A stretch of DNA of 64,000 nt, from positions 56,751 to 120,750 of the forward strand of contig CACYKY010000007.1 in NCBI GenBank assembly GCA_902775135.1, read 5' to 3'. The DNA is from an uncultured Bacteroidota bacterium. GTDB lineage: Bacteria; Bacteroidota; Bacteroidia; Bacteroidales; P3. The number at the start of each line of letters is the position of its first letter. The first letter of the stretch is position 1. The notes beneath the pieces were generated by a model. It had not been told where the DNA came from and did not search any database. It saw only the letters and a program-made list of their open reading frames with translations. Below, piece by piece: positions 10,307 through 54,794 of the stretch. A program made the position numbers and the translations under genes.

Positions 10307-11776
10307 ATGAGAAAGAACATTTTCCTGATAGCCCTTACCGTCCTGATGGCTGCTCCCGCCGCCCAAGCTCAGTTCGACGAAACCAACAACCTCTTCTACC
10401 ATACCCTGCGCACCCCGCAATCCAATATCTACAACCCCGCTTTCTTCCCCACCAACAACACCTTCTACATCATGCTCCCGGGCGTCGACGTCCAATTCGG
10501 CAGCCCCCTCTCCATGAACAACATCATCTACTACGACCGTCCGTCCAACCGCACCGTCATCGACCTCAACCGTATCCTCTCATCCCTTGAGGAAGAAAAC
10601 GATTTCCGCCTCGGTGCCGATGTCAACCTCGTCGGTTTCGGTTTCAACGTGAAAAACACATACATCAACTTCAACACCCGCTTGGTCAACCACATCGGCG
10701 TAGGTCTCCCCATCTCCACCATCAACGCCCTCCTCGAGGGTAACGTCGGCGACGACAACAATCCCCGTCCCGTGGTAGAAATCGTCAATGGCGACATCCT
10801 CAACGCCACCTCCTACCTCGAGACCTCCATCGGCGTCGCACAGCGCTTCGAGCCCATCAACCTCACCGTCGGTCTCCGCGCCAAAGTCCTCTATGGTATC
10901 GCCAACGTACAGACCGACAACACCAAGATTGTCCTCAACACCGACCCCGCCCTCGACTCCGTCTCCGCCTCCATCTACTACCAGATCCAGTCGGCAACCT
11001 TCGCCCCCTACGACACCACCCAGAAGAAATTCCTCTTCAATGTCGGCGACCTCTTCAACATCGGTCAGGCCAACACCGGCTTCTCCTTCGACATCGGTGC
11101 CCGCTACGACTTCGGCCCCTTCACCTTCTCCCTCGCCATCAACGACCTCTCCGCCGGTATCCACTGGAAGAACAACGTCACCACCTGGACCCCCTCCAAC
11201 GGCCAGGGTGTCATCACCTTCAACGGTCTCAGCGTCAACTCCATGCTCGACAACGGTTCCTTCAATATCGACTCCCTTACCGCCTACCTCCAGAACCAGC
11301 TCAACGGTATGACCCCCCATCGTGTCGCTGACGGCGACTACTGGTTCTCCATCCCCACCAAGTTCAACCTCGGCGCCAGCTACAGCTTCGCCAAGATCTT
11401 CCGCGCGGGATTCCTCTTCCACGGTCAGCTCGACCGCGGCCTCTTCTGCAAGTCGAACTCCCTGAGCTTCGGCACTCCGGCCCCCAACACCTTCCGCTGG
11501 AACACCACGCTCTCCATCGGTGCCAACCTCTTCAACTGGGTCGAGGTCATCGCTGCCAACTCCTTCGTCAACGACGGCTCCTCCTTCGACGTCCTCAATC
11601 CCGGCGTCGGCATCGTCCTCACTCCCGGCACCGTCTTCCAGGTCTACCTCATGGCCGACTACCTCAGCTCCTTCTACCTCACCGACTCCAAAGCCCTCAA
11701 CCTCAAATTCGGCCTCAACCTCCTCTTCGGCAAAGGCTCCCGATCCATCATCGAAGAAACTGCCGCCCGGTTTTAG
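10307..11776 (+). CDS. hypothetical outer-membrane beta-barrel protein (N-terminus loosely PorP/SprF-like)
   Basis: 489 aa. Signal peptide ending AQAQ, then FDETNNLFYHTLRTPQSNIYNPAFFP. Alternating beta-strand pattern, Gly/aromatic rich. Confidence 0.75.
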   Translation: MRKNIFLIALTVLMAAPAAQAQFDETNNLFYHTLRTPQSNIYNPAFFPTNNTFYIMLPGVDVQFGSPLSMNNIIYYDRPSNRTVIDLNRILSSLEEENDFRLGADVNLVGFGFNVKNTYINFNTRLVNHIGVGLPISTINALLEGNVGDDNNPRPVVEIVNGDILNATSYLETSIGVAQRFEPINLTVGLRAKVLYGIANVQTDNTKIVLNTDPALDSVSASIYYQIQSATFAPYDTTQKKFLFNVGDLFNIGQANTGFSFDIGARYDFGPFTFSLAINDLSAGIHWKNNVTTWTPSNGQGVITFNGLSVNSMLDNGSFNIDSLTAYLQNQLNGMTPHRVADGDYWFSIPTKFNLGASYSFAKIFRAGFLFHGQLDRGLFCKSNSLSFGTPAPNTFRWNTTLSIGANLFNWVEVIAANSFVNDGSSFDVLNPGVGIVLTPGTVFQVYLMADYLSSFYLTDSKALNLKFGLNLLFGKGSRSIIEETAARF

Positions 11777-11825
11777 TGAATTGTGAATAGTGATTAGTGA
11801 TTAGTGATTAGTGAATAGTGATTAG
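11774..11825. repeat. heptamer tandem array TAGTGAT/TAGTGAA (~7.4 units)
   Basis: Read directly. The first unit contains the TAG stop of the 10307-11776 gene. Confidence 0.95.
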
Positions 11826-11840
11826 ACGGGATAGAGGCAG

Positions 11841-11890
11841 ATTTCAATTTTCAATTTTCAATTTTCAACTTTCAACTTTCAATTTTCAAC
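11841..11890. repeat. heptamer tandem array TTTCAAT/TTTCAAC (7 units)
   Basis: Read directly. Preceded by GAGGCAGA (11834-11841). Ends 18 nt before the der ATG. Confidence 0.95.
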
Positions 11891-11908
11891 ACTCACCCCC
11901 CACAAGAA

Positions 11909-13213
11909 ATGAACATCATCGCCATTGTCGGACGCCCCAACGTCGGTAAGTCCACCCTCTTCAACCGTCTCACCGAGAGTCGCGACGCCATTGTCGACCC
12001 CACCTCCGGTGTTACGCGCGACCGCCAGTATGGCCACTCCGACTGGAACGGCAAGCACTTCTCTGTCATCGACACCGGTGGCTATGTCATGGGCGGCGAC
12101 GACGAGTTCGAGGCCGAAATCCGCAAGCAGGTCTCCTTGGCCATCGACGAAGCCGACGCCATCCTCTTCCTTGTCGACGCCCGCGAAGGTCTCACCCCCA
12201 TGGATGAGGATGTGGCCGAGATGCTCCGCCGCCAACCCAAGCCCGTTGTCCTTGCCGTCAACAAGGTCGACAACGCCGCCCAGATGGACGCCCTCGCCGA
12301 GTTCTACGCCCTCGGCCTCGGCGACCCCTACCCCATTGCAGGTATCACCGGCTCCGGCACCGGCGACCTCCTCGACGCCCTGGTGAAGGATTTCGACGAA
12401 GGCAACGACGACCCCACCGACGGCCTCCCCCGCATCGCCGTCGTCGGCCGCCCCAATGTGGGCAAGTCATCCTTCATCAACATGATCACCGGCGAACATC
12501 GCTCCGTGGTCACCCCCATCGCCGGCACCACCCGCGACGCCGTCTACTCGCACTACAACCTCTTCGGCTTCGACTTCAACTTCGTCGACACCGCCGGCCT
12601 CCGGCGCAAAGCCAAGGTCTCCGAGGACCTCGAGTTCTACTCCGTCATGCGCTCCGTCCGCGCCATCGAGGCCGCCGATGTCTGCATCCTCATGCTCGAC
12701 GCCTCCCAAGGACTCGAGCAGCAGGACCTCAACATCTTCTCCCTCATCCGGCGCAACAACAAGGGTGTCGTCATCGTCGTCAACAAGTGGGACCTCGTCC
12801 AGAAAGAGACCAACACCCACCGCGACTACGAAAACCTCATCCGCGAGCGCATCGCCCCCTTCGACGATGTGCCCATCATCTTCACCTCCGTCATCAACAA
12901 GCAGCGCATCTTCAAGGTCCTCGAAACCGCACGTGCCGTCTACGAGGCCCGCTCGCGCCGCATCTCCACAGCCGAACTCAACGACACCCTCCTGCCCATC
13001 GTCAAAGAGCAGAACCCGCCGCCCTCGGTCAAAGGCAAATGGGTTAAAATCAAATATATCACCCAACTCCCAACACCCTATCCCCAGTTCGTCTTCTTCT
13101 GCAACCTCCCGCAGTATGTCCGCGACCCCTACAAGCGTTTCGTCGAAAACCGCATGCGCGAACTCTGGGACTTCCACGGTGTTCCCATCACCATCTACTT
13201 CCGTGCAAAATAG
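11909..13213 (+). CDS. der: ribosome-biogenesis GTPase Der (EngA), double G domain
   Basis: Two P-loops (GRPNVGKSTLFN, GRPNVGKSSFIN) and a KH-like C-terminus. Confidence 0.95.
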   Translation: MNIIAIVGRPNVGKSTLFNRLTESRDAIVDPTSGVTRDRQYGHSDWNGKHFSVIDTGGYVMGGDDEFEAEIRKQVSLAIDEADAILFLVDAREGLTPMDEDVAEMLRRQPKPVVLAVNKVDNAAQMDALAEFYALGLGDPYPIAGITGSGTGDLLDALVKDFDEGNDDPTDGLPRIAVVGRPNVGKSSFINMITGEHRSVVTPIAGTTRDAVYSHYNLFGFDFNFVDTAGLRRKAKVSEDLEFYSVMRSVRAIEAADVCILMLDASQGLEQQDLNIFSLIRRNNKGVVIVVNKWDLVQKETNTHRDYENLIRERIAPFDDVPIIFTSVINKQRIFKVLETARAVYEARSRRISTAELNDTLLPIVKEQNPPPSVKGKWVKIKYITQLPTPYPQFVFFCNLPQYVRDPYKRFVENRMRELWDFHGVPITIYFRAK

Positions 13214-13263
13214 TTTAAGTTATTAGTTTTAGTTTTTAGCATTCTCTTAAATCTTAACTCATA

Positions 13264-13305
13264 TTTCAATTTTCAATTCTAAATTTTCAATTCTCAATTA
13301 AATTT
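13264..13305. repeat. heptamer tandem array TTTCAAT-type (6 degenerate units)
   Basis: Read directly. Preceded by a TAGTTT-type low-complexity run at 13211-13240. Confidence 0.85.
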
Positions 13306-13360
13306 TGGCACGCAATTTGCAGTAACAAAAATTGAAAAACAATAAAAAAAACAATAAAAC

Positions 13361-13675
13361 ATGAAAGTAACAGAAGAAAACTTCAACGAGATGATTGCCT
13401 CCGGCAAACCCGTTATGGTCGATTTTGGTGCCACCTGGTGTGGCCCCTGCAAAGCCCTTGCTCCCCGCATCGAAGAGCTTGAGAAAGAGTACGAAGGCCG
13501 CGTCATGATTGGCACCGCCGATGTCGACGAATGCTCCGACCTCGCCGCCAAGTTCCGTATCCGCAACGTCCCCACCGTCCTCTTCTTCAAAGCCGGAAGC
13601 GACGCCCCCGTCGACAAATCCGTCGGTCTCGTCGCCAAGGAAACCCTCGCCGAGAAACTCAACGCGCTGCTCTAA
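13361..13675 (+). CDS. trxA: thioredoxin
   Basis: 104 aa with the WCGPC active site. Confidence 0.95.
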   Translation: MKVTEENFNEMIASGKPVMVDFGATWCGPCKALAPRIEELEKEYEGRVMIGTADVDECSDLAAKFRIRNVPTVLFFKAGSDAPVDKSVGLVAKETLAEKLNALL

Positions 13676-13679
13676 TATT

Positions 13680-14651: not shown

Positions 14652-14730
14652 AAAGGGCGCGTTTGGGTGCAAAGGATGGGTGGTGGAAAAGTTTTTTTGG
14701 AAGACAAGGGTGTAATTGAAGATTTTTTTG

Positions 14731-14738
14731 TATATTTG
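14731..14738 (+). promoter_or_regulatory. Bacteroidota -7 promoter box
   Basis: TATATTTG lies 88 nt upstream of ATG 14826. Confidence 0.45.
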
Positions 14739-14825
14739 CATTTTGTATTTCCCACTGTTGGCCGACGCGAACCATGGGCAAACATGCGGCATATCAATGA
14801 ATCAACAAAAAAAATATATAAATTT

Positions 14826-16178: not shown

Positions 16179-16186
16179 ACGAAGGG

Positions 16187-16744: not shown

Positions 16745-16750
16745 AATGCA

Positions 16751-16781
16751 TTAGGGGCATTAAAGCCCTTAATGCCCCTAA
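16751..16781 (+). terminator. perfect 13-bp inverted repeat (TTAGGGGCATTAA / TTAATGCCCCTAA), possible terminator
   Basis: Arms 16751-16763 and 16769-16781, 5-nt loop, 7 nt after the HD gene stop. No U tract. Confidence 0.4.
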
Positions 16782-16806
16782 AGCCCATCCATAAAGCAAA
16801 ACAAAC

Positions 16807-16834
16807 GGTAAACCATAAACAGTAAACAGTAAAC
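16807..16834. repeat. heptamer tandem array NGTAAAC (4 units)
   Basis: Read directly. Ends 4 nt before ATG 16839. Confidence 0.85.
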
Positions 16835-16838
16835 CGAT

Positions 16839-20132: not shown

Positions 20133-20167
20133 TTTCAATTTTTAATTTTCAATTTTCAATTTTCAAT
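20133..20167. repeat. heptamer tandem array TTTCAAT (5 units)
   Basis: Preceded by GAGGCAGA (20125-20132). The last unit supplies the A and T of ATG 20166. Confidence 0.95.
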
Positions 20168-21786: not shown

Positions 21787-23602
21787 CGCACTCCTCACCA
21801 TAGAAAATCTCACCAAGAGCTTCGGCGACAAGATGCTCTTCGAAGACATCTCTTTCGGTATCAACGCCGGACAGAAGTCCGCACTCATCGCCCGCAACGG
21901 ATACGGCAAATCGACCTTGCTCAACATCATCATCACAGCCACCGGCCAGCCCGGTTACAACACCCTCCAGGATTCCGGCAAAATCACCTTCCGCAGCGAC
22001 CTCCGTCTCGCCTACCTCCCGCAAAGCCCCGAAGCCTATCCCAAACAGCTGGTGCGCGACTTCGTCTACAATATCCAGCGCCCCGAAACCGAAGATCCCT
22101 GGACATTCGAACAGCGCATCGAGGAGATTCTCAGCCGCATGCGCGTCGACACCCTCCTCGACCGACAGATGGAAACCCTCAGCGGTGGCGAGCAGAAGAA
22201 GGTGGCATTGTGCAAATTGCTCATGGACGACTGCAACCTGCTCATCCTTGATGAACCCACCAACCATCTGGACATAGACATGATCGAGTGGCTCGAGGAG
22301 TTCCTTTCGCGCCAGCGGCTCGCCCTCCTCATGGTCACCCACGACCGCTACTTCCTCGACAACGTCTGCGACAACATCTATGAGCTCGACAACTCGCGTC
22401 TCTATCACTATAAAGGCCACTATGACTATTATCTGGAGAAAAAGGCAGAGCGCGAGGCCAACGAGCGTGCCGAGGTCGAGAAAGCCCGCAGCCTCTACCG
22501 CACCGAGCTGGAGTGGATGCGACGCATGCCGCAGGCTCGCGGCACCAAGGCGCAGGCCCGCATCGACGCTTTCTATGAACTCGAGGCCAAAGCCCACACC
22601 CGTTTCGACGACTCCCGTCCCCAGCTCACCGTCAAAACCGAGCGTATCGGAGGCAAGATTCTGGAACTATACAACATCTGCTACCGCGACCTCATCGACG
22701 ACTACAGCTACGTCTTCAAGCGTGGCGAAAAGATAGGCATCGTCGGACCTAACGGCGTGGGCAAAAGTACCTTCCTGAACCTCATTACAGAAAAACTCAA
22801 ACCCACTTCGGGACGCGTGGTGGTGGGTCAGACCATCCAGTTCGGCTACTACACCCAGGCGGGCATGAAGGCCCCCGACGACCGCCGTGTCATCGACCTC
22901 GTGAAAGATATCGCCGAAGAGATAGAGCTCGACAACGGCAAGAGTATGTCTGCCCACCAGTTCCTGACCTACTTCGGATTCGACGGCACCACGCAGTACA
23001 ACTACTTCGGTAACCTCAGCGGCGGCGAGCGACGGCGACTCTATCTGCTGCAGGTCCTCATGGCCAACCCCAACTTCCTCATCCTCGACGAGCCCACCAA
23101 CGACCTCGATATCTACACCCTCCAGATCCTGGAGCAGTTCCTACAATCCTATAAAGGCTGCCTCGTTATCGTCTCCCACGACCGCTCCTTCATGGACCAC
23201 ATCGTCGACCATCTCCTGGTCTTCGAGGGCGACGGACAGATCCGCGACTACCACAGCAACTACACCGACTACCGCCAGGAGCGCCAGCGTCGCGACCGCG
23301 AAAAGAAAAAAGAGAGGGAGTCGCCGAGTGGCAAAGTGGCTGAGTCGCCGAGTGGCAAAGTGGCCAAGTCACTCAGCAACAAACGCAAAGCCACCTACAA
23401 GGAACAAAAAGAATACGAGGCCCTCACCGCCGAAATCGACACCCTCGCCGCCGAGCGTGCCGACCTCGAACGCCAGCTCTCCGACGGTTCCCTCTCCGAC
23501 CCCGACGCCCTCACCCTTGCCTCCACTCGCATCGGCGAAATCATCGCCCTCCTCGACGAGAAAGAACTCCGCTGGCTCGAACTCGACGAAATCGTCAATT
23601 GA
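21779..23602 (+). CDS. ABC-F family ATPase (two ABC domains, C-terminal coiled coil)
   Basis: Start at MADALLTIENLTKSFG. Two Walker A sites (ARNGYGKST, GPNGVGKST) and two LSGGE signatures. Confidence 0.9.
   Translation: MADALLTIENLTKSFGDKMLFEDISFGINAGQKSALIARNGYGKSTLLNIIITATGQPGYNTLQDSGKITFRSDLRLAYLPQSPEAYPKQLVRDFVYNIQRPETEDPWTFEQRIEEILSRMRVDTLLDRQMETLSGGEQKKVALCKLLMDDCNLLILDEPTNHLDIDMIEWLEEFLSRQRLALLMVTHDRYFLDNVCDNIYELDNSRLYHYKGHYDYYLEKKAEREANERAEVEKARSLYRTELEWMRRMPQARGTKAQARIDAFYELEAKAHTRFDDSRPQLTVKTERIGGKILELYNICYRDLIDDYSYVFKRGEKIGIVGPNGVGKSTFLNLITEKLKPTSGRVVVGQTIQFGYYTQAGMKAPDDRRVIDLVKDIAEEIELDNGKSMSAHQFLTYFGFDGTTQYNYFGNLSGGERRRLYLLQVLMANPNFLILDEPTNDLDIYTLQILEQFLQSYKGCLVIVSHDRSFMDHIVDHLLVFEGDGQIRDYHSNYTDYRQERQRRDREKKKERESPSGKVAESPSGKVAKSLSNKRKATYKEQKEYEALTAEIDTLAAERADLERQLSDGSLSDPDALTLASTRIGEIIALLDEKELRWLELDEIVN
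23318..23365 (+). repeat. in-frame 24-bp tandem duplication inside the ABC-F gene
   Basis: GAGTCGCCGAGTGGCAAAGTGGCT / ...GCC encodes ESPSGKVA twice. Confidence 0.9.
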
Positions 23603-23616
23603 AAATTGAAATCTTA

Positions 23617-28387: not shown

Positions 28388-28425
28388 GTTGAAATTGAAA
28401 ATTGAAAATTGAGAATTGAAAATTG
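28388..28425. repeat. heptamer tandem array AATTGAA-type (5 units) directly upstream of the YidE-like start
   Basis: Read directly. On the minus (coding) strand it reads TTCAATT. Confidence 0.9.
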
Positions 28426-28466: not shown

Positions 28467-28541
28467 AATTGAAAATTGAAAATTGAACTGCGCATTGCTG
28501 CGTCAGCCAATTTTCAATTTTCAATTTTTAATTTTCAATTC
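28467..28541. repeat. inverted pair of heptamer arrays (AATTGAA x3, then TTTCAAT x4) that can fold into a long A/T hairpin
   Basis: 28467-28487 is complementary to ~28509-28529, with a loop of ~21 nt (CTGCGCATTGCTGCGTCAGCC). Lies immediately downstream of the argF stop on the minus strand. Confidence 0.8.
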
Positions 28542-29548: not shown

Positions 29549-29581
29549 TAATTATTGTTTAATTGTTTAATTGTTTGATTG
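29549..29581. repeat. octamer tandem array GTTTAATT (about 4 units)
   Basis: Read directly. Abuts the argF start codon. Confidence 0.85.
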
Positions 29582-30633: not shown

Positions 30634-30641
30634 CAAATGTA
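30634..30641 (-). promoter_or_regulatory. Bacteroidota -7 promoter box for arcC-argF
   Basis: The minus strand reads TACATTTG, 62 nt upstream of ATG 30572. Confidence 0.45.
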
Positions 30642-30695
30642 CGAAAAAAAAACAACATGACAAAAAAAACGTCATTTTCAATGCATTATTTAAAA

Positions 30696-34437: not shown

Positions 34438-34451
34438 ATTTTGAAACTTTT

Positions 34452-34535
34452 CAATTTTCAATTTTCAATTTTCAATTCTCAATTTTCAATTTTCAATTCT
34501 CAATTCTCAATTCTCAATTCTCAATTTTCATTGCG
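34452..34535. repeat. heptamer tandem array CAATTTT/CAATTCT (about 11 units)
   Basis: Read directly. Fills the rsmD-purC spacer and contains the last 5 codons plus the stop of rsmD. Confidence 0.95.
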
Positions 34536-35059: not shown

Positions 35060-35069
35060 TTTTTGACTA

Positions 35070-35107
35070 AACTACTGCCTACTTAACTACTGCCTACTTA
35101 ACTACTG
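35070..35107. repeat. 15-bp tandem repeat AACTACTGCCTACTT (2.5 units)
   Basis: Read directly. Fills the spacer between the DUF3822 stop and the rsmD start. Its complement (AGGCAGTAGTTAAGT) resembles the array at 57371-57405. Confidence 0.9.
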
Positions 35108-36634: not shown

Positions 36635-36674
36635 ATTGATAATTCCTTTTTTGTTTACACTATAAAATCGGGTG

Positions 36675-36682
36675 CAAAGATA
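36675..36682 (-). promoter_or_regulatory. Bacteroidota -7 promoter box
   Basis: The minus strand reads TATCTTTG, 41 nt upstream of ATG 36634. Confidence 0.55.
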
Positions 36683-36864
36683 CGAATAAAATGGCAAATA
36701 ACACGCATAAAATTTTCATTATTTTTTCTCTCACACCTCCAACCTCGCGCAAACCAATATCAATCAACCATTTGTCACAAAACCATTTTTTTTCATTCCA
36801 CCACCTCTTTCATTACCTATTCTCCAATCACCGACCACTAATCACTCATTTCAATATTTAATTC

Positions 36865-37341: not shown

Positions 37342-37343
37342 CG

Positions 37344-37381
37344 GGATCAGGCCATATTATTCGTGGATCAGGCCATATTAT
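37344..37381. repeat. 17-bp direct duplication GGATCAGGCCATATTAT (period 21)
   Basis: Copies at 37344-37360 and 37365-37381. The second copy contains the last four codons and the stop of the YebC gene. Confidence 0.9.
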
Positions 37382-38081: not shown

Positions 38082-38117
38082 AAATTGAAAATTTAAAATT
38101 GAAAATTGAAAATTAAA
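38082..38117. repeat. heptamer tandem array AATTGAA/AATTTAA (5 units)
   Basis: Read directly. Fills the spacer between the SulP stop and the YebC start. Confidence 0.9.
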
Positions 38118-39827: not shown

Positions 39828-39950
39828 ATTGTTTGAATTGTGTGATTGTTTGACTGTGTGATTGTTTGATTGCGTGATTGTGTGATTGTTTGATTGCGTG
39901 ATTGTTTGACTGTGTGATTGTTTGATTGTGTGATTGTTTGACTGTGTGAG
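39828..39950. repeat. imperfect ~16-bp tandem array TGTGATTGTTTGAYTG (about 7 units)
   Basis: Read directly. Occupies the whole spacer between the PAP2 stop (39959) and the SulP start (39821). Confidence 0.9.
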
Positions 39951-42929: not shown

Positions 42930-42954
42930 CTTTTCATTGTTCGTTTCAAAAAAT

Positions 42955-43364
42955 AGCCAGGGCCTGTAAGCCGGGTTCTGTAACCCCTTGCGGGTCTTCT
43001 ATCATCAATCTGGGGCCGCCGTCGCCGACGGTCTCTATCGACCTACCCTCCGACAACAGCCTTTTGGCTATCGGGCGAGCCGGCCCGAGGTTGTCGGTTT
43101 ATTTGGTCTTTCAGCCCATGAGGCTTGCCATCGTGCCCGTCACCGGGACACGTCGTGGGCTCTTACCCCGCGTTTTCACCCTTGCTTTATGCAAGGAGTT
43201 GTCCCTGCATAATCGGCGGTTTGTTTTCTGTGGCGCTTGCTGTCACCCCTGGGGAACCCCATAGAGCCCGATGAGGGGTGCCTTCCCGTTAGGAAGCATG
43301 GTGGCTCGCGCTGCCCGGACTTTCCTCTCGGCGGCGGATGCCGAGCGATAGAACAGCCCTTGCT
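42955..43364 (-). ncRNA. rnpB: RNase P RNA, bacterial type A
   Basis: The minus strand contains GAGGAAAGTCCGGGC (P4 5' strand), GGGTGAAAACGCGGGGTAAGAGCCCAC and ACAGAACCCGGCTTA (P4 3' strand). A P1 pairing joins the 5' AGCAAGGGCTGT and 3' ACAGGCCCTGGCT segments. Ends are +/- a few nt. Confidence 0.93.
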
Positions 43365-46650: not shown

Positions 46651-46730
46651 GTGGGTTGCGTTTTAAAATCTATATGTTTCGATAACTCTTTTTCCCGTTT
46701 TTTATTGTGTCGCCGAACCGAAAAAGTGAT

Positions 46731-46769: not shown

Positions 46770-46792
46770 CACTTATGAAAGATTACATGTTC

Positions 46793-49700
46793 TTATCGGA
46801 TGACAACCACCTTGCGGGTGACGAGGTTGGCCACCTTGACCATGTAGGAGCCGGAGACAGGCACGTCAAAGCGGACGGGCTGTGTGGCGTCGGACTTGGT
46901 GGCAAGGACACGACCGTTGACATCGAAGAGGGTCACGTCGAGACCGTAGGACTCGCTGACGACAATCTGACCGTTCTCCACGACGACCTCGACGTTGGTG
47001 ACAACGACGGGATCGAGTTCAGGATTGTAGTGGTCGAAGTTGCCGGGGAGCGGGTTGGAGAAGAAGTCGGGGGTCTCGTCGGCCTCGGAGCAGGGGCGCC
47101 AAGGTTTCATGAGAGCCACGAGGGTGATGTTGGCCTGGCCGGTGTAGTTGAAGGGGTTGGCACGGGAGATGGTGTCGTTGCCGTCCCACCAGCCCATGAA
47201 GGCCCAGCCGGCCTGCGGCAGACGGAGCTCGACGGAGGCGTTGGTGCCGAGGGCGACGTTGGCGGTGCGCTCGATGGTGCCGTTGACGTTGACACCGAAC
47301 TGGAGGGCGCCTTCTTCAGCACCGTTCTCGATGGTGACGTTGACGGTGTAGTGGGTAGGCACGGGCTCGAAGTAGGCGGTCAGGTCGGGATTGACACCGA
47401 GAATGTCGATGAACTCGAAGGAGCGGTCGGCACGGGTGTCGCCATCGCTCCAGCGGACGAAGCGGTAGAGCTGCGGGTTGTTGCTGACGGCGTGGATCTC
47501 GGCCACCTCGCCATAGTAGTAGCGGTCGGTGGCGTTGTGCACGTCGGGCGTGGTGGAGAGGTTGGTGTAGGCGGTACCCATGGTCTCGTCGTTGGAGGCG
47601 ACGGTGACGCGGGCGGTGCGGTCCATCAGGGTGCGCTCGTCCTCATAGGTGATGGAGACGTTGTCGACAGCGGCTGCGGGGGCCACGATGTCGTTGTCAT
47701 CGTCGACGGTCCAGAAGAAGGACAGGCGGTACCAGCCGGGTTCGTTGATGCGGACGATGCGCTCCTTGTACTGCCAATCATCGATAGTGGGATCGAAGCC
47801 ATAGAGGCTGTCGGCCACGAGGATGAGACCCGGGGTTTGGGGATTGAGGTCGATGTAGTTGCCGTCCTCCTTGAAGAGGCCTACGCTGAGGTAGTCGTCG
47901 CTCTCGCCGGCGACCATGTAGTTGAAGCGGATGCGATAGTAGCCTTCGTCGAACTTGAGTTCGGTGTAGATGGAGGCGTCGGAAGCGGCGTCATAGGTGT
48001 TGTGGACACCGTTGTCGTTGGAGACATAGAGGCCCTTGCCGTTGCGGCCGTAGAAGGAGGCGTCGCCGATGACCCACTGGTTGGCACCGGTGGTGGGGCT
48101 AAACCAGCTGGCGTTGTCCTCGGGGTTGTTGAAGTTGAAGTATTCGGCCACCACCTCGGAGGCGCTGGGCGAGCGGCCCCAGATGGGCGAGATGGTCATG
48201 TCGTCGTTGGTGAGGGTGATGGTGCGGGGGTTGTCGGTGTTGCCGTCGCTCCAGGACTGGAAGATGTTGTTGGCGCCGGGAGTGGCAGCGATGGTGTAGG
48301 TGTAGGCCAGGGAGTTGCAGGTGGGGGCGTTGGTGATGGCCACCATACCGCCGGGACGCTGCATCACGATGAGCTGGGGCATGTTGCCACCCTGGATGTG
48401 GGTGAAGCCAGCCCAAGTCATGTTCTCCACGTAGTTGGCGCAGGGCACCGAGACGGTGACCTCGTCCTTGCTCACCGACTGGAAGGCGGCGTCATTGACG
48501 TTGGCGGGGATGCCGAGGAGGTCGATGTGGCGCAGGTTGTCCAGACGATAGAAGGCGTTTTCGCCGATGGTGGTGACGCTGGCGGGGATGGTGATGTTGT
48601 TGATCAGCGTGTCGAAGAAGAAGGCGAAGGGCTTCACCTCAACGGTGCCGTCGGGGATGACGAGCTCGGTGAGGATGGTGCCGTTGACCGAGAGGTTGCG
48701 TGAACGCGACATAGGCTGGGCGTTGGCGTTGGCGAAGCTGATGTTCATCCAGTCGGCGATGTTGCCGTTGAAGCTGGTGAGGACGATATTGTTGGAGTTC
48801 TTGAAGCAGTCGGTGCCGAAGGAGGCGTTGCCGGCGTTGAGGGTCACGAAGTGGAGGCCGGTCATACCGGCGAAGGCCTGAGCGCCCACGGTGGTCACCG
48901 AGGCGGGAACCTCGAGGTTGTAGATGCTGCTGCAGCCGTTGAAGGCATAGCTGCCGATGGTGGTGACACCGGCGGGGAACTCAACACCCGTCAGCGAGGA
49001 GCAACCCTGGAAGAGGCCCTCGGGGATGGTGGTGAGACCTGCGGGCAGGATCACGGAGGTCAGCGCGGAGCAGTTGTGGAAGGCATAGGTACCGAGGTTG
49101 GTGATGCCGTCGTGCAGGGTGACCGAGGTGAGGGCGGAGCAGCCGTCGAAGGCATAGTTGCCGATGGAGGTGACACCTGCGGGGATGGTGATGTCGGTGA
49201 GGCTGGTGCAGTTGCGGAAGGCAGCGTTGGCGATAGCGGTGACCGACGAGGGGATGGTGACGGTGGTGATGCGGTTGCGATAGGCCTCGATGACACCGGT
49301 GACGGTGGTGCGGAGCACGTCGTCGTCATAGGTCAGGTAGTCCTGCATGTCGGGGTTCTCGGCCACGAAGAAGCAGGCGGTGACGGTGGTGTCGGAAGTG
49401 ATGGTGATGGTGAGGCTGGGGTTGATGCTGAGGATCGAGGTGCCCGACATCCAAGCCACGAAGGTGTAGTTGGGGTTGGTACCGGCGTGGGCGTAGAGGG
49501 TGACGGTCTCGCCGTCGGCGTATTCGCCAGCCACGTTGGCGGGCTCAACATGGATGTTGGGGTCGTTGGCGGGGTTGGTGTTGACGGTCAGCAGGTGGTT
49601 GGCGTTCTGGTGGAAGACGGCCTGCACGGTGACATCGGAGGAGATGTTCTCGATGCGGCAGGTGGTGTTGGTGTTGTCCACGCCGTTGACGACCCACTTC

Positions 49701-51601: not shown

Positions 51602-51629
51602 AACTATTTATTTTAAGTTATTAATACAT

Positions 51630-53303
51630 TTATCTATTTTTCACAAGACGCACAGAGCAACCATTTCCACGGGATTTTCCTGTTGAAGCGGCGACAGTAG
51701 AACTTGTAAAATGTAAACTATTGGCTTGCATACCAGTCTTATGCGTCGCGGACCAATAGAATCCTAAATCATTAACATCGTTTGTGGAAGTACCATTACG
51801 GTGACCAGCAGCAGGCAGGAAAATAGCACCAGCCATTTCCATCTTATCCCAGTCTTCAAGAGAATAGGTATTTGTTGAGTAGCCTGAAGCAATGCCTGGA
51901 GTGAAAGTGAGACCCGCAGGCAAAGTCCATGACTCCGGCAAAAGAATCAAACCCTTGTATGCGCCATTGATTGTAGCCAAAGCATACTTGCTAGCTGCAT
52001 TTGTGCGACCCGTCAGCAGATAATTCCATTCGTCATCTGTAAGCGTACGCCAAGAAGATAAACCGGAAACGGCAGAACCATAGTATATATCGGCTCCATT
52101 ATAAACACCCCAATCTGAATTGGCATAAGTACCAAGCAGGTCGGCGTCGTTACTGCCACCCGGCTTAAATGTACCAGTCGTTGCATAAGGCTCATAGGCA
52201 GCACCACCACCGCTATTCCAACCGCTCGTTCCCCATCCGAAAAGGTCAATCCAACCTTGATAATATGGGCCAATTCTATTATTACTGATTTCACCTGCAA
52301 CGGCATACTGTGTATTTGCAAATCTAAAACGGCCTGTCATTTCTCCAGAACCAACGTCTTCATATCTTGTATATTGAAGGTTACCAGCAGAGAACCTTAC
52401 TTGAAGTCCCGCGGAAACCTGAAAATAACTTTTGCTGGATCCGTTTGCATAAAATGGAGACTGTCGTTCTGTTCCAAGAGTATAAACATATCCTTTATAC
52501 ATAGTTACAGGAGCCTGTGTCTTACGCTGTACTTGAGCGCCTCCATTATAGGTCCATTCCAAATATAGGGTTGTGGTTACACTGTTGCCTTCAATGGGGA
52601 TGGCCACATACCAATAATCGCTCTCACCTGCATGACGACGAGTCATATACAAGAAATCACCGTTGATGACTCCGCCACCGCCTTGCGCCACACCATTCAT
52701 ATAATTGCCGCTTGGTTCAGTGCTGAGAGTTCTATTCGAGACATTGATGGTACCGGCCGCGGGAATAGCATTTCCATCAAATCCAACCTTGATATAGTCG
52801 TAATTAGCGCCGGCGCCCTTCGTATCGATGCGGAGGATGGCGCAGGCAGGCTGAAGAGAAATGACATAATTGCCATTATTCTCAGCGACTCCGCCCAAAA
52901 TAGCCTTGCATGAAGCAGGATTATCCAGATTATCATTCATATTGAAACGATAGGTGCCGGCGGCAGAATCGTAAGTGCCAACCTCACCGTCAACATAGGT
53001 CACGAGGAAGCGCTCTGCAGTAATAGCCCTATCGCTAGTGGCGTACCATTCTCCTTCACTTTTGGTCATAGAGAACGGATAACCATTGATATAAACGACA
53101 TCACCTTCATCATAGATGAGGTTGGAGGCGGACTCAGAAAACTGCAGATGTACCTTCTGGCCGTTCTCATCGAGGAACTGGGGTGCTTCTATTCTGAAGC
53201 GTTTGGACGAACCAACGGAAGCGTTGCCTTCCTCCTGCCTCTCGCACGAGACGACAAAAAGGCAGGCGAGAGAAGCTAATAAAGCAATACAGATTTTTTT
53301 CAT
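51630..53303 (-). CDS. lipoprotein with C-terminal FISUMP (Fibrobacter succinogenes major paralogous / DUF1566-like) domain
   Basis: Lipobox LACLFVVSC. C-terminus WRTLTDDEWNYLL, GAIFLPAAGHRNG, GFYWSAT, GCSVRLVKN. Confidence 0.8.
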   Translation of the reverse strand: MKKICIALLASLACLFVVSCERQEEGNASVGSSKRFRIEAPQFLDENGQKVHLQFSESASNLIYDEGDVVYINGYPFSMTKSEGEWYATSDRAITAERFLVTYVDGEVGTYDSAAGTYRFNMNDNLDNPASCKAILGGVAENNGNYVISLQPACAILRIDTKGAGANYDYIKVGFDGNAIPAAGTINVSNRTLSTEPSGNYMNGVAQGGGGVINGDFLYMTRRHAGESDYWYVAIPIEGNSVTTTLYLEWTYNGGAQVQRKTQAPVTMYKGYVYTLGTERQSPFYANGSSKSYFQVSAGLQVRFSAGNLQYTRYEDVGSGEMTGRFRFANTQYAVAGEISNNRIGPYYQGWIDLFGWGTSGWNSGGGAAYEPYATTGTFKPGGSNDADLLGTYANSDWGVYNGADIYYGSAVSGLSSWRTLTDDEWNYLLTGRTNAASKYALATINGAYKGLILLPESWTLPAGLTFTPGIASGYSTNTYSLEDWDKMEMAGAIFLPAAGHRNGTSTNDVNDLGFYWSATHKTGMQANSLHFTSSTVAASTGKSRGNGCSVRLVKNR

Positions 53304-53344
53304 AGTATAAATTCTCCTTTCTTTTTCGCTATTAGACCATGAGA

Positions 53345-53623
53345 TTAGAACCAGCCACCGTTAGAATACTGCCATCCGCTGCTGCCGCCGTCACCGGAGT
53401 GATCTTCGTTGCCAGTCATGCCGCCGGCGACAATGCCGCCTCTTCCGATGTCCGTCTGGCCAATAACCATGTGCTGACCCAAATCGTTATTGATGAATTC
53501 ATCGATTTTTTGATGGGTATTAATCACATAGTTGCCCTCGGACCCAGCGAAGCCGCGTTCAGTTCGGAACTCCACCACGGTGAGGGTGGGAGTTTCGTAG
53601 GTTAGTTTGTTTTGTTTTTTCAT
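53345..53623 (-). CDS. small Gly-rich protein without signal peptide (92 aa), first gene of the FISUMP/BspA operon
   Basis: ORF MKKQNKLTYETPTLTVVEFRTERGFAGS...GGIVAGGMTGNEDHSGDGGSSGWQYSNGGWF. A TATCTTTG box lies ~90 nt upstream. Coding status not proven. Confidence 0.55.
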   Translation of the reverse strand: MKKQNKLTYETPTLTVVEFRTERGFAGSEGNYVINTHQKIDEFINNDLGQHMVIGQTDIGRGGIVAGGMTGNEDHSGDGGSSGWQYSNGGWF

Positions 53624-53714
53624 ATCTTTATAAAACGTTTTATATTCCTAACAAATTCATTATCATATACCTATAGCGCAAACCACCCTTTTTGGGGGTA
53701 TACACTACACAATG

Positions 53715-53722
53715 CAAAGATA
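53715..53722 (-). promoter_or_regulatory. Bacteroidota -7 promoter box
   Basis: The minus strand reads TATCTTTG, upstream of ATG 53623. Confidence 0.55.
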
Positions 53723-53769
53723 CGAAGAAATACCGACTTGGCAAATATTTTTTTCAACAGCTGTTGAAT

Positions 53770-54348
53770 TTAACGCTTTTTAAGAGGGGAGTTGGGGGAG
53801 AGACGGTGTGCCTGGCGTACGCGGGTCATTTCTTCTTTGATACCGCCATTGGCAAGAAAATCAGACTTAAGTCGTTCTATCAATCTAAAAAGCAGATAAT
53901 CTGCCTGATGTATCAATATGATGGCAATGTTGGCAATGGTCTCGTCAGAGCGCTGTTCAGCGGCCTGTATATAGTAAGCCGGCTCATTATGAGTAGAGCA
54001 TATTTTGCGAGTCTGTTCCCAGCGTGGATCGCCTTCCGTCCACTGTTGCAACCCCCTCACACGCAAATAGTCTTCATAATCGACAAGCAATTCCTGCAAA
54101 CTTGCTTTAGCCACGTTGGTGAGCTTTATCTCCGTCTCCTTTGAGGTGGCGCTGGCGGCGGAGCCCTCGGCTATATTTTGTTTTCCACTTCGCGCTGCTT
54201 GTACCATCTGGTCGACGGTACGGTCGCCTTTAGAGAGATACGTGTTAGCGAAATAGAAGGTGAGATCGTATATGCACTCAGCTTTCTTGTAAGCCACAAG
54301 ACCCTTATAGTTGCCACGCTGGGGAAGGAATTCGTTGTTGGGGGTCAT
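53770..54348 (-). CDS. four-helix-bundle protein (23S rRNA intervening-sequence-protein-like) with suffix domain
   Basis: 192 aa. AARSGKQNIAEGSA and SLQELLVDYEDYLR are typical of the family. Confidence 0.7.
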   Translation of the reverse strand: MTPNNEFLPQRGNYKGLVAYKKAECIYDLTFYFANTYLSKGDRTVDQMVQAARSGKQNIAEGSAASATSKETEIKLTNVAKASLQELLVDYEDYLRVRGLQQWTEGDPRWEQTRKICSTHNEPAYYIQAAEQRSDETIANIAIILIHQADYLLFRLIERLKSDFLANGGIKEEMTRVRQAHRLSPNSPLKKR

Positions 54349-54401
54349 AATTGTTTTTTTTGGAAAAACGAGGCGTCGGTGGTTTTATTGCACAAAGTGA
54401 G

Positions 54402-54422
54402 TTTTTTTTTTGAAAAAAAAAA
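54402..54422. repeat. T10-G-A10 homopolymer palindrome
   Basis: Read directly (T 54402-54411, G 54412, A 54413-54422). Confidence 0.95.
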
Positions 54423-54423
54423 T

Positions 54424-54513
54424 TTAGGGGCCTTAGGGGCTTTAAGGGCCTTAAGGGCCTTAAGGGCCTTAAGGGCTTTAAGGCCTTTAGGGGCATTAAG
54501 GCCTTTAGGGGCG
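54424..54513. repeat. nonamer tandem array TTARGGGCY (10 units)
   Basis: Read directly. The last units contain the stop and final codons of the 52-aa Cys-rich ORF. Confidence 0.95.
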
Positions 54514-54663
54514 GCTTTTGTGGCAGTTTTGGGGATTGTGGGGGCAGTTGTGGCAGCCGCAGGAACAGCCTCCCCCACCCTTTCCTTTCGTTAGTCGGAT
54601 GATCCGGCGGACGACGAAGAAAAGGGTGACGGCAAGGATGAGGATGACCAAGATGAACTGCAT
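54505..54663 (-). CDS. FeoB-associated Cys-rich membrane protein (52 aa; below ORF-track cutoff)
   Basis: Manual translation MQFILVILILAVTLFFVVRRIIRLTKGKGGGGCSCGCHNCPHNPQNCHKSRP. One TM helix plus a CxCxC..C tail, downstream of feoB as is typical for this family. Confidence 0.75.
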   Translation of the reverse strand: MQFILVILILAVTLFFVVRRIIRLTKGKGGGGCSCGCHNCPHNPQNCHKSRP

Positions 54664-54759
54664 TATTAATTAGTTAATAAGTTAATTAGTTTGCTCCAGC
54701 CCTCTGCGCATCCCCCAGCTAACGTCGCAGGCCGTGTCTCCCTTGGAGCCAGGCAGAAT

Positions 54760-54794
54760 AGTTTATAGTTAATAGTTATGAGTTATGAGTTAAT
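54760..54794. repeat. heptamer tandem array AGTTATG/AGTTAAT (5 units) followed by a T run
   Basis: Read directly. Preceded by AGGCAGA (54751-54757). Lies just downstream of the feoB stop. A related TTAATTAG-type run sits at 54664-54691. Confidence 0.9.

Follow-up and report, generated by a model that had tools for sequence, protein, structure and literature searches.

In this rumen Bacteroidales genome, many of the short gaps between genes that we infer to be co-transcribed are packed with hypervariable tandem repeats of 7-9 bases, and these intergenic arrays are a real and striking feature of the genome. We ran Tandem Repeats Finder (TRF) on the window, i.e., the whole stretch of 64,000 nt under analysis, and found that arrays (score >=40 for coverage counts) occupy 15.1% of the 5,361 intergenic nucleotides vs 0.67% of the 58,639 coding ones. 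The comparison with shuffled sequence advised by the initial annotation revealed a clear enrichment: 18 intergenic arrays, where 200 shuffles that preserved dinucleotides gave 1.8 +/- 1.2 (maximum 6), and 11 period-7 arrays between genes against 0.04 per shuffle. Intergenic periods are 7 (11 arrays), 8 (three), and 9, 12, 13, 15, and 18 (one each); the period is a multiple of three in nine of the ten coding arrays. A single unit, TTTCAAT (complement ATTGAAA), is behind 9 of the approximately 20 arrays in the window, 5 of them T-rich and 4 A-rich when read on the absolute plus strand. TRF recovered every array in the initial annotation, with positions that agree exactly or differ by a few bases, but the statement there that arrays systematically fill entire spacers is too strong, because 12 of the 34 spacers of at least 20 nt are array-rich (>=30% array), with coverage of 31-89%. 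Two arrays are marginal: ATTGAAA at 23597-23611 (2.1 copies, no strand assigned), in a 14-nt gap between convergent genes and including the TGA stop of ABC-F, and AGTAGTTAA at 57387-57404 (2 copies, no strand assigned), in the FeoB promoter spacer.

The arrays change rapidly. They are present in independent rumen metagenome assemblies, as the initial annotation had suggested verifying, with copy-number polymorphism between strains: strains 96.6-99.99% identical differ by whole-unit indels. The description of the arrays as slippage-prone thus holds, since copy number differs by whole units even between strains 97-98% identical. Across strains, the DUF5723-der spacer measures 97, 132, 139, or 153 nt and the der-trxA spacer 132, 140, or 147 nt, whereas the promoter-bearing DUF58-M20 spacer is constant at 174-176 nt. 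A relative at 86% identity (L006) has other units (CTCTTAA, AGAAGTGAAA). In five relatives whose Der is 86-94% identical, no spacer separates DUF5723 from der, which adjoin or overlap, and arrays are few and mostly made of 11-mers. Orthologous spacers in relatives hold seeds in single copy or measure just 28 nt, and in 19 kb of relatives' spacers TTTTCAA ranks 22nd and TTTCAAT 40th among 7-mers. Elsewhere, the TTTCAAT unit forms 191 arrays in 117 other loci. A few other Bacteroidales MAGs share unit families with this genome: L021 has TAGTGAT, L038 and L055 have the CAAACAAT 8-mer, and a Tidjanibacter MAG has the TTAAGGGCC 9-mer.

The location of the arrays relative to promoters is uneven. The strict -7 box TAnnTTTG is found in 0 of 12 array spacers vs 12 of 22 others (Fisher p=0.0018), and one and the same extended promoter word recurs in array-free spacers. 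Since none of the 12 carries this Bacteroidota box, most array-rich spacers are probably intra-operon junctions, where co-transcription is deduced solely from missing consensus promoters or terminators. A sigma-54-like promoter is present in one array spacer at least (der-trxA). A search for terminator-like sites in array spacers returned none except at 9-mers.

Downstream of stop codons, the units carry stop triplets, and five arrays provide the stop codon of the upstream gene. Directly 3' of DUF5723, the TAGTGAW array (7.4 copies, 11774-11825, plus strand) has the TAG stop of the gene as its first unit, is C-free, and presents stop triplets in all three frames; its length differs by -35, +7, or +21 nt in other strains. 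The C-free TAGTTTW/TAGTTTAAGTTAT array (13211-13239, plus) begins with the TAG stop of der and is kept in L006. On the minus strand, TAACTCA/TAACTAT (sense, 5.4 copies, 54757-54794) lies just 3' of the FeoB stop, and the 15-mer CAGTAGTTAAGTAGG (2.8 copies, 35066-35107) fills the DUF3822-RsmD spacer. ATTGARA (sense, 11.9 copies, 34448-34530, minus) fills the RsmD-purC spacer, gives RsmD its TGA stop, and ends 10 nt 5' of the purC ATG.

Arrays next to start codons have A/U-rich sense strands predicted to be unstructured (three complete spacers have MFEs between 0.0 and -0.6 kcal/mol). The array TTTCAAT/TTTCAAC (6.9 copies, 11842-11889, plus; 6-8 units in other strains) is directly preceded by GAGGCAGA, ends 19 nt before the der ATG, and has a G-free sense strand with neither start nor stop triplets. 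TTTCAAT x5 at 20133-20167 (plus) also has GAGGCAGA directly 5', its final unit overlaps the DUF1232 ATG, and the complete 55-nt spacer has a predicted MFE of -0.6. AAACAGT (4.6 copies, 16803-16834, plus) ends 4 nt 5' of the gltD-like ATG, and AAAAACAATAAA (2.1 copies, 13335-13359, plus) adjoins the trxA ATG. On the minus strand (units given as sense), TTTCAAT/TTCTCAA (4.9 copies, 28392-28425) ends 5 nt 5' of the Asp-Al_Ex (YidE-like) ATG; TTTCAAT (4.7 copies, 38082-38114; MFE -0.3) fills the SulP-yebC spacer, a site of 45 nt here vs 78 nt in strains L131/L132; the G-free 8-mer TAATTAAC (3.9 copies, 54662-54691) adjoins the FeoB_assoc ATG; and the G-free 8-mer CAATTAAA/CAATCAAA (3.5 copies, 29554-29581) lies in the argB-like (AA_kinase)/OTCase spacer. 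The 8-mer CACACAAT/CAAACAAT (sense, 15 copies, 39828-39949, minus; 31% C and 4% G) fills the 137-nt PAP2-SulP spacer, which has a predicted MFE of 0.0; the array is 32 nt, i.e., four units, shorter in L131/L132, and the spacer is 28 nt in the relative L215.

A number of observations indicate that these arrays are polarised at the level of the mRNA. First, G makes up 5.6% of the 30 nt 5' of start codons in array spacers vs 16.6% in others. Second, all eight pre-start arrays lack ATG/GTG/TTG on the sense strand, whereas the antisense would hold 2-7 in five of them; among arrays near a start with such triplets on one strand only, 7 of 8 use the start-free strand as sense. Third, 7 of the 9 TTTCAAT arrays track gene direction and not the absolute strand. 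The claim that the T-rich version is the sense strand in 5 of 6 TTTCAAT arrays preceding starts is correct against the called genes. The purC array is the exception: it breaks the rule, since here alone the sense strand is the A-rich one that contains TTG. The trxA case needs qualification: this array (TTTCAAT/TTCTCAA, 5 copies, 13264-13299, plus; der-trxA spacer) is T-rich on the sense strand but lies 61 nt from the ATG, upstream of the sigma-54-like box (13306-13321). It is 7 or 15 nt shorter in strains and is replaced in L006 by CTCTTAA units plus one TTCTTAAC. Fourth, across many phyla (120 loci), the arrays preceding starts have T-rich sense strands by 38:20 (p=0.025, uncorrected; home-made gene calls with 81% sensitivity on the window), and those with an A-rich sense strand lie against stops or include them. 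Translation initiation in Bacteroidetes depends on how the mRNA folds and on the avoidance of AUGs (PMC6847099). The G-free, start-free, unstructured pre-start arrays fit Shine-Dalgarno-independent initiation in Bacteroidota, and the unstructured A/U-rich leaders of the initial annotation are in this sense borne out.

Palindromic 9-mers and one inverted heptamer pair are instead predicted to form hairpins. The 9-mer TTAAAGCCC (3 copies, 16760-16786, plus), 3' of HD_4, has a predicted 13-14-bp hairpin (spacer z -5.9) and a terminator-like match at 16751-16781. The 9-mer GCCCTTAAG/GCCCCTAAA (10 copies, 54423-54512, minus; -9 nt in L137) includes the TAA stop of FeoB_assoc, and its predicted hairpins (z -6.0), with T10-C-A10 downstream, make it a likely intrinsic terminator. 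The proposed terminator role thus suits the palindromic 9-mers; for the TTTCAAT arrays it was rejected. What had been reported as one head-to-tail array at 28467-28541 does consist of repeats, but these are two opposite arrays (28467-28540, minus; units given as sense): (AATTGAAA)x4.7 at 28508-28540, 4 nt past the OTCase stop, a 20-nt GC-rich loop, and (TTCAATT)x3 at 28467-28487. A ca. 20-bp A/U hairpin is predicted (spacer MFE -43.9, z -9), and at this position L216, a relative, carries a ATTGAAAA...TTTTCAAT hairpin in single copy.

We lean towards the explanation that the arrays are simple-sequence repeats generated by slippage, tolerated in unconstrained junctions, and filtered by selection on the mRNA in a phylum without Shine-Dalgarno initiation. 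Judging from the polymorphism pattern, replication slippage would grow and shrink short direct repeats in A/T-rich spacer DNA, often from a local seed such as a stop-codon heptamer or a small ATTGAAAA/TTTTCAAT hairpin. Arrays would survive only where non-triplet insertions are harmless, which agrees with their distribution outside ORFs and -33/-7 promoter spacers; in practice, these sites would mostly be junctions of presumably co-transcribed genes and gene 3' ends. Selection on the mRNA would then decide which unit and strand persist, as composition and orientation suggest: by start codons, a G-free, ATG/GTG/TTG-free, unstructured sense strand would suit ribosomes that ignore Shine-Dalgarno sequences, and by stop codons, units with TAG/TGA/TAA at period 7 would present stops in all three frames. 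The folding 9-mers and inverted heptamer pair would be exceptions, the 9-mer array followed by T10 being probably a terminator. In-situ slippage alone does not account for one dominant unit or for the preference for period 7.

Slippage without any selection on unit or orientation, with polarity due to mutation bias or chance, is unlikely, even if fast turnover and polymorphism are in its favour, TTTCAAT is not special in viral scans, and in other genomes the arrays of units different from TTTCAAT that precede predicted starts have no clear asymmetry in G/C (39:30) or start triplets (30:23). It leaves unexplained the tracking of gene direction, the use of the start-free strand, the depletion of G before starts, and the cross-phylum bias. 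Rather improbable, too, is that the repeats are a cis-regulatory platform or rheostat, with multivalent mRNA sites for an RNA-binding protein (bS1, cold-shock, KH) or a single-strand-specific RNase, whose hypermutable copy number would adjust how the downstream cistron is translated or processed. The dominance of a single unit, the reappearance of unit families in a few other Bacteroidales MAGs, and the fixed orientation of arrays abutting starts speak for it, and there are precedents: the same kind of role was put forward for TAACTGA repeats (PMC4679880), and in Haemophilus influenzae hmw expression is set by a 7-nt repeat of the 5'-UTR (PMC12721329). Yet orthologous junctions are array-free in five to eight relatives and the sister species has different units, copy number wanders among almost identical strains and points to no optimum, equivalent positions are taken by at least ten unrelated units, the genes concerned are housekeeping genes with no relation to one another, and (TTTCAAT)4 gives 12 stretches in a viral collection vs 36 and 20 for composition-matched control heptamers.

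That a founder or mobile element, GAGGCAGA plus (TTTCAAT)n, inserted like a MITE or REP and then spread between spacers is very unlikely. The shared flanks on which the initial annotation based a founder are present (GAGGCAGA at 11834 and 20125, AGGCAGA at 54751), GAGGCAGA occurs four times in the window, two of them directly abutting TTTCAAT arrays, and these two loci have 14 nt in common (GAGGCAGATTTCAA). One octamer at two loci supports a founder weakly at best: the seven remaining TTTCAAT arrays lack the flank, similarity does not extend beyond 8-9 nt, the case at 54751 is transcriptionally oriented the other way and adjoins another unit, and we saw no terminal inverted repeats or target duplications. 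Furthermore, L216 and L006 hold single-copy seeds at orthologous positions, a metagenome scan for GGCAGA+TTTCAATTTTCAAT yielded nothing beyond the orthologous locus in a different strain and two unrelated matches of 2 copies, and the flanks of ca. 130 arrays from other genomes have no consensus. At two loci, in opposite orientation, the relative L215 has the same ca. 92-nt palindrome built of 11-mer arrays, with a common 12-nt flank; given this dispersed element and the GAGGCAGA flank of two arrays, some copying of arrays between loci may occur. Highly doubtful is a role in Rho utilisation or insulation, in which G-free, C-containing, unstructured pre-start repeats would be rut-like sites through which the downstream cistron has its transcription coupled to translation: C exceeds G with nil predicted structure over 35-122 nt (e.g., 39828-39949), but most arrays are A/U-rich with only ca. 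10-19% C, the genes they precede are housekeeping ones, among them der, which encodes a ribosome-assembly GTPase, and the arrays are missing in relatives. An assembly or consensus artefact, for which there is only the general tendency of short reads to mis-assemble repeats, is refuted: 15 or more contigs that differ in sample, study, and assembler contain the same arrays, whose variation is coherent and in whole units.

The initial annotation knew of no matching repeat family, which is wrong: the arrays belong to an already described, still unexplained class, the bacterial heptanucleotide long simple-sequence repeats. Intergenic repeats of this class have been described (Mrazek 2007, cited in PMC4679880), and the heptamer excess and slippage hypothesis are published in PMC4679880 and PMC4692102. 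Cyanobacterial STRR, TAACTGA repeats, and GGGAATC repeats (PMC4692102) are examples, and (GATAGRA)n is a heptamer repeat of Chloroflexus (PMC6749651). The window arrays are the Bacteroidales counterpart of the cyanobacterial STRR and of further heptanucleotide families, and the sense unit at 54757-54794 differs at a single base from the TAACTGA unit known from the literature; the TTTCAAT unit appears to be undescribed in Bacteroidales. As a by-product of slippage under mRNA-level selection, spacers may have lengthened from 0-30 nt to 45-155 nt, and, more speculatively, the translation of neighbouring cistrons would then probably be uncoupled and could be tuned.

All tandem arrays located by the initial annotation were recovered, exactly or a few bases off, with Tandem Repeats Finder (TRF) and by direct reading. 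With the genes called on public contigs 100% identical to the window (L001, L130, and L136), 5,361 bases are intergenic and 58,639 coding, and arrays with a TRF score of at least 40 cover 15.1% of the former versus 0.67% of the latter. The proposed comparison with shuffled sequence, made at the scale of the window, revealed 18 arrays in the 34 spacers of at least 20 nt, against 1.8 ± 1.2 (maximum 6) in 200 dinucleotide-preserving shuffles, and the difference is particularly marked for period 7 (11 arrays observed, 0.04 in shuffles). Intergenic periods are 7 (11 of 19 arrays), 8 (three), and 9, 12, 13, 15, and 18 (one each), and the period of coding arrays is a multiple of three in nine out of ten cases. 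A 69-nt (23-codon) repeat of 2.4 copies at 49025-49191, in the gene of a 1,602-aa LRR_5/Flg_new protein, is an ordinary in-frame coding repeat. Several details of the first description had to be revised: 1) the stretch 28467-28541, taken for one array, consists of two in opposite orientation around a 20-nt GC-rich segment; 2) the arrays at 23597-23611 and 57387-57404 are present, but with only about two copies; 3) the array said to adjoin the trxA ATG is instead upstream of a sigma-54-like box; and 4) arrays do fill spacers, but they make up at least 30% of just 12 of the 34, where their coverage is 31-89%. We call these 12 spacers array-rich. An assembly artefact is contradicted by exact-protein look-ups of TrxA, YebC, and FeoB, which found the arrays on contigs from several studies of rumen metagenomes and several assemblers, and a metagenome scan added one further NCBI contig carrying them. 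An Rfam search of the whole window returned only a class A RNase P RNA (42951-43364, - strand, 229 bits) and a tRNA-Arg(ACG) (4035-4111, + strand), with no match in array spacers; these two RNAs occupy, and thereby explain, two long array-free spacers.

Contigs 96.6-99.99% identical to the window allowed the strain comparison suggested at the outset, and they retain the arrays with different copy numbers, a variation between strains as read from consensus assemblies. The DUF5723-der spacer is 97, 132, 139, or 153 nt long, the der-trxA spacer 132, 140, or 147 nt, and the SulP-yebC spacer 45 or 78 nt. Insertions and deletions correspond to whole units (±7, +21, and -35 nt, -32 nt or four units in the 8-mer array, -9 nt in the 9-mer array), +33 nt being the one exception, and the order of variant units inside arrays is also reshuffled. 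Unlike these, the DUF58-M20 spacer, which carries a promoter, is 174-176 nt long in every strain. Three other features were noted along the way. First, the 3' end of yebC, stop codon included, is duplicated in tandem over 21 nt (AATATGGCCTGATCC..., 37342-37367); the duplication is missing in strains L131, L132, and L134 and looks like a nascent repeat seeded by the stop-codon segment. Second, 37 nt found in two other assemblies are missing from the window around 57565. Third, a 35-nt direct repeat (57426-57460 and 59295-59329) flanks a 31%-GC gene of 380 aa (57767-58909) that neighbours WYL and type I restriction-modification genes, and the segment it brackets is probably an inserted island.

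Between species, the arrays themselves are replaced. In a relative with ~86% nucleotide identity (contigs L006 and L008), the DUF5723-der spacer is 27 nt long and array-free, CTCTTAA units and one TTCTTAAC stand at the place of the window's TTTCAAT, and trxA is followed by an array of four AGAAGTGAAA, against 4 nt in the window. Five further relatives (Der 86-94% identical in amino acids) have DUF5723 and der abutting or overlapping (-4 to +3 nt), der-trxA spacers of 17-67 nt, and few arrays, mostly 11-mers in three copies. The dominant units thus differ by lineage: TTTCAAT in the window (nine arrays per 64 kb), CTCTTAA and AGAAGTGAAA in the sister species, and 11-mers in other relatives. The PAP2-SulP junction spans 137 nt, with an 8-mer array, in the window versus 28 nt in L215, a contig whose YebC is 92% identical. 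At the OTCase-Asp-Al_Ex junction of the public contig L216, a single-copy hairpin ATTGAAAA-N6-TTTTCAAT after the stop and one TTCTCAAT before the start coincide exactly in position with the window's three arrays. When all canonical 7-mers of the relatives' spacers (19 kb) are ranked, TTTTCAA is 22nd and TTTCAAT 40th. These sequence comparisons indicate that the arrays would have expanded in situ from local seeds, together with a species-level burst. A separate case concerns one hypothetical gene, the orthologue of window 8968-10278, which has a three-copy 11-mer array upstream in four of five relatives (L140 6916-6951; L141 6816-6854; L142 6769-6803; L143 6732-6762), at a conserved position and with a different unit sequence in every species; the fifth (L139 7104-7152) has a degenerate 22-nt repeat in its place.

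The primary sigma factor of Bacteroidota uses the boxes -33 TTTG and -7 TAnnTTTG. Counting only the strict consensus in the direction of the downstream gene, we found the -7 box in 12 of 22 array-poor spacers and in none of the 12 array-rich ones (Fisher p=0.0018). It is mostly part of a longer word, TTTTTTCG-TAnnTTTG-CA, found nearly verbatim in 12 array-free spacers (e.g., 8886-8905, 14723-14742, 30634-30655, 36674-36693, and 57300-57320) and recovered again by the all-against-all comparison of spacers. The recurrence of this word provides a clean operon map of the window. Terminator-like sites were absent from array spacers, apart from the palindromic 9-mers. Since array spacers have neither -7 boxes nor such sites, most arrays are likely to lie at junctions between co-transcribed genes. 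The der-trxA array spacer also carries a perfect sigma-54-type -24/-12 box, TGGCACGCAATTTGCA (13306-13321, + strand), 40 nt upstream of the trxA ATG, which is the sole exact match in the window and is retained in L006 and, less perfectly, in the relatives L141-L143. Judging from the motif, the thioredoxin gene of this clade may depend on RpoN.

The arrays are polarised relative to the mRNA. All genes are on the + strand up to 23602 and all on the - strand from 23617 to 57275; TTTCAAT (complement ATTGAAA) has its T-rich version on the sense strand in seven of nine arrays, and the split by absolute + strand is 5:4. Four of these arrays end -2 to 19 nt from an ATG. On the sense strand, arrays near start codons mostly lack G, and G makes up 5.6% of the 30 nt before starts in array spacers versus 16.6% in other spacers. 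The sense strand of pre-start arrays is devoid of ATG, GTG, and TTG in eight out of eight cases, and the antisense strand would carry two to seven of these triplets in five. When pre-start and spacer-filling arrays with start triplets on one strand only are considered, the start-free strand is the sense one in seven of eight, the exception being the purC array. Spacers that consist entirely of TTTCAAT or CACACAAT are predicted to be unstructured, with minimum free energies (MFE) of -0.6 (55 nt), -0.3 (45 nt), and 0.0 kcal/mol (137 nt). Stop-adjacent arrays carry stop triplets, in all three frames for six of nine, and in five cases (DUF5723, der, ABC-F, RsmD, and FeoB_assoc) the array contains the upstream gene's own stop. 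Ribosomes of Bacteroidetes do not rely on Shine-Dalgarno pairing, mRNA structure tunes their initiation, and AUG is depleted near starts (PMC6847099, PMC7797042), with which the polarity of the arrays agrees. Some arrays are predicted to fold. The inverted heptamer pair (28467-28540) could form an A/U hairpin of ~20 bp (spacer MFE -43.9, z -9), and the palindromic 9-mers of the TTAAGGGCC family (16760-16786 and 54423-54512) could form hairpins too (spacer z -5.9 and -6.0). Behind the array at 54423-54512, where the feoB operon ends, comes T10-C-A10, which makes this hairpin-forming array a probable intrinsic terminator.

In the genome collection, (TTTCAAT)4 occurs at 120 or more loci in many phyla. 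The matches listed include many Bacteroidales (among them Tidjanibacter, Odoribacter, Butyricimonas, and Parabacteroides), Saprospiraceae, Thermoanaerobaculia, Patescibacteria, cyanobacteria, and others; period 7 dominates in these loci, and 117 of them hold 191 arrays of the TTTCAAT family. Genes of these loci were called with a self-trained codon model that has 81% sensitivity and three false positives on the window. Across the 120 loci among the matches listed, arrays before predicted starts are T-rich in the sense strand 38:20 (p=0.025), arrays that are A-rich in the sense strand abut or contain stops (median of a few nt), and T-rich ones lie ~45 nt after stops. Non-TTTCAAT arrays of other genomes gave no clear polarity signal before starts; after stops they show G>C by 35:6, a measure with some circularity, as stop triplets within arrays themselves set the end of the ORF. 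The recurrence of TTTCAAT across phyla is not evidence for a special unit, since in the viral collection (TTTCAAT)4 was found in 12 stretches versus 36 and 20 for two composition-matched controls, and a universally special TTTCAAT was accordingly rejected. The window's other units occur in a few MAGs of Bacteroidales (TAGTGAT in L021, the CAAACAAT 8-mer in L038 and L055, and the 9-mer in one of Tidjanibacter; MAG, metagenome-assembled genome). A unit vocabulary common to Bacteroidales was also rejected, with few exact cases (L021, L038, L055, and L072) and one-mismatch counts near chance.

TTTCAAT contains no stop triplet in any frame, as seen generally in contigs L011-L129 (e.g., L074, L114, L082, and L035), so that ORFs over-extend upstream through the arrays; this accounts for the apparent placement of 34 arrays inside genes. 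Some YebC homologues in public annotations are 38 residues longer at the N-terminus (274 versus 236 aa); for L216, the one such case checked, no stop interrupts the upstream stretch, but it is not an array. A different arrangement was observed in Thermoanaerobaculia MAGs of 61-68% GC, where a dozen species share a uniform intergenic element, (AATTGAAA)4 + GC-rich loop + (TTTCAATT)4 (contigs L019, L034, L035, L042, L071, L075, L083, L084, L102, L104, and L125). Its arms are conserved and its loops variable (25-35 nt, once ~250 nt with a small ORF), and it at times flanks one gene on both sides. It looks like a distinct palindromic element, possibly an undescribed one.

The initial annotation knew of no described family that matches the arrays. 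In fact, they belong to the heptanucleotide class of long simple-sequence repeats (LSSR): they exceed chance, have mostly period 7, are non-coding, vary by whole units, and use lineage-specific units. The literature search retrieved no paper that describes such arrays in rumen Bacteroidales or the TTTCAAT unit. The LSSR survey of Mrazek, Guo, and Shah (2007), as summarised in PMC4679880 and PMC4692102, describes head-to-tail repeats of 5-11-nt units, most commonly of period 7, almost all intergenic and sporadic in phylogenetic distribution, for which polymerase slippage was proposed. The window's arrays are alike in all these respects, including the proposed cause, and differ in host, the rich genomes named there being Burkholderia, cyanobacteria, actinobacteria, and Xanthomonas. 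The cyanobacterial STRR (short tandemly repeated repetitive sequences) of Calothrix and Anabaena, cited in PMC4692102, are likewise heptamers in tandem in non-coding DNA with several units per genome. The window belongs to another phylum and shows an explicit link with operon junctions and with start and stop codons. Its units also differ from those of STRR, such as CCCCAGT, TTGGTCA, and CAACAGT.

The closest functional analogy is with the TAACTGA repeats that MacGregor (2015, PMC4679880) described in marine Beggiatoaceae, some Cyanobacteria, and five Bacteroidetes. Both have one dominant heptamer with others mixed in, mostly forward orientation a few nt upstream of starts, Shine-Dalgarno-poor genomes, 7-nt indels between strains, and arrays missing at the same junctions in close relatives. 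The window's single near-match (TAACTCA/TAACTAT, 54757-54794, one mismatch) lies after a stop rather than before a start, and its arrays additionally occur after stops and as inverted pairs. The intergenic heptamers GGGAATC of Xanthomonas and GGGGAYT of Nostoc (~180 loci per genome; Rehm et al. 2015, PMC4692102) also vary strongly in length between close relatives and include some hairpin-capable inverted pairs; they are G-rich and form G-quadruplexes, whereas the window's arrays are rich in A/T, have a sense strand without G, and are predicted to be unstructured. (GATAGRA)n in Chloroflexus is a further published heptamer (PMC6749651). In Haemophilus influenzae, slippage alters the copy number of (ATCTTTC)n in the 5'-UTR of hmw1A and hmw2A, which sets expression (PMC12721329, PMC8262952). 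These repeats resemble the window's in having a 7-nt unit in a leader that is transcribed (in the window, presumably so) and a copy number altered by slippage; they differ in concerning single surface-adhesin loci, where the mechanism is defined and involves a hairpin and RNase III, whereas here the loci number in the dozens, lie at junctions of housekeeping operons, and are mostly structure-free. Finally, REP/BIME and MITE-like elements have the same intergenic or operon-junction location, and the inverted heptamer pair, the 9-mers, and an 11-mer palindrome of L215 are hairpin-capable like them; TTTCAAT arrays lack a conserved 20-40-nt palindromic unit, terminal inverted repeats, and constant flanks, and they vary by unit copy number, not by presence or absence of a whole element.

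The best-supported account is that slippage would generate long simple-sequence repeats, which would be tolerated in unconstrained junctions, and that selection at the level of the mRNA would then filter their unit and orientation. Enrichment, polymorphism, turnover, placement, composition, orientation, and the predicted lack of structure are shown by the sequence data, from which we infer slippage, co-transcription, and selection; this account leaves the preference for period 7 and the dominance of one unit unexplained. One rival is a founder element, hinted at in the initial annotation, which would be a small unit made of the octamer GAGGCAGA and a TTTCAAT array that spread between spacers. 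Of the octamer's four occurrences in the window, two lie directly against a TTTCAAT array, which is unlikely by chance. The likeness between the two flanks ends after 8-9 nt, the 8-nt flank is absent from seven of the nine TTTCAAT arrays, and the third flank case (54751) has the opposite transcriptional orientation. A metagenome scan for the junction GGCAGA+TTTCAATTTTCAAT returned the orthologous locus only, plus two unrelated two-copy matches, and the all-against-all comparison of array-masked spacers gave a single 14-nt match (GAGGCAGATTTCAA) besides the promoter word. When imperfect palindromes or terminal inverted repeats were sought, most TTTCAAT arrays turned out to be single direct arrays with MFE ~0, the only inverted pair being that at 28467-28540. 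A case in favour of dispersal comes from L215, where a ~92-nt palindrome, (TGTTCTTCGAT)4 + (ATCGAAGAACA)4, is present at 4203-4295 and 9683-9775 with a common 12-nt flank (TGTCAACACCGT) in opposite orientation. In this palindrome, tandem arrays make up a dispersed element, and some copying between loci is conceivable in this clade.

Phase-variable contingency loci of the hmw type do not fit, because the neighbours are housekeeping genes (der, trxA, purC, yebC, OTCase, SulP, and rsmD), the arrays are many, and no effect on expression is known; furthermore, the arrays are outside ORFs, in spacers without a -7 box. The A-rich strand of heptamer arrays reads TTGAAA-N17-GAAAAT, which is sigma-70-like, and promoter mimicry was rejected for this organism because its primary sigma factor uses other boxes and this strand is mostly antisense. 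Heptamer arrays lack the G+C-rich hairpin and U-run of intrinsic terminators, features found only in the 9-mer array at 54423-54512 and partly at 16751-16781. A CRISPR array is ruled out, as units of 7-16 nt are directly adjacent, without the unique spacers and 24-40-nt repeats of CRISPR.

If the arrays are merely tolerated products of slippage, they represent an ordinary though well-documented case of a known class. A more ambitious reading, which we regard as improbable, is that they form a lineage-wide cis-acting system in which a small vocabulary of units marks intercistronic junctions and provides a copy-number rheostat. Its members (UUUCAAU ahead of starts, either UAGUGAU or AUUGAAA behind stops, and palindromic 9-mers), common to several genera of Bacteroidales including Tidjanibacter, would then be multivalent sites of landing or processing, used by Shine-Dalgarno-blind ribosomes or an RNA-binding protein, and hypermutable copy number would act as a population-level rheostat on housekeeping operons. 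Such a reading would come with a unit-specific generating or copying mechanism, which would explain why one heptamer dominates each genome. In practical terms, the arrays can be used as VNTR-like strain markers for rumen Bacteroidales, and stop-free arrays are a source of gene-caller errors by upstream extension of ORFs. Why intergenic DNA fills with heptamers in some bacterial lineages and why one unit dominates each genome has been a standing question since the STRR reports of 1990 and the survey of 2007. In the lineage studied here, public rumen metagenomes already contain numerous near-identical strains as well as graded relatives, the arrays have a clear polarity toward starts and stops, array and promoter spacers are cleanly split, and initiation in the phylum depends on leader structure instead of Shine-Dalgarno pairing. 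Together, these assets make the question of mutation versus function directly testable.
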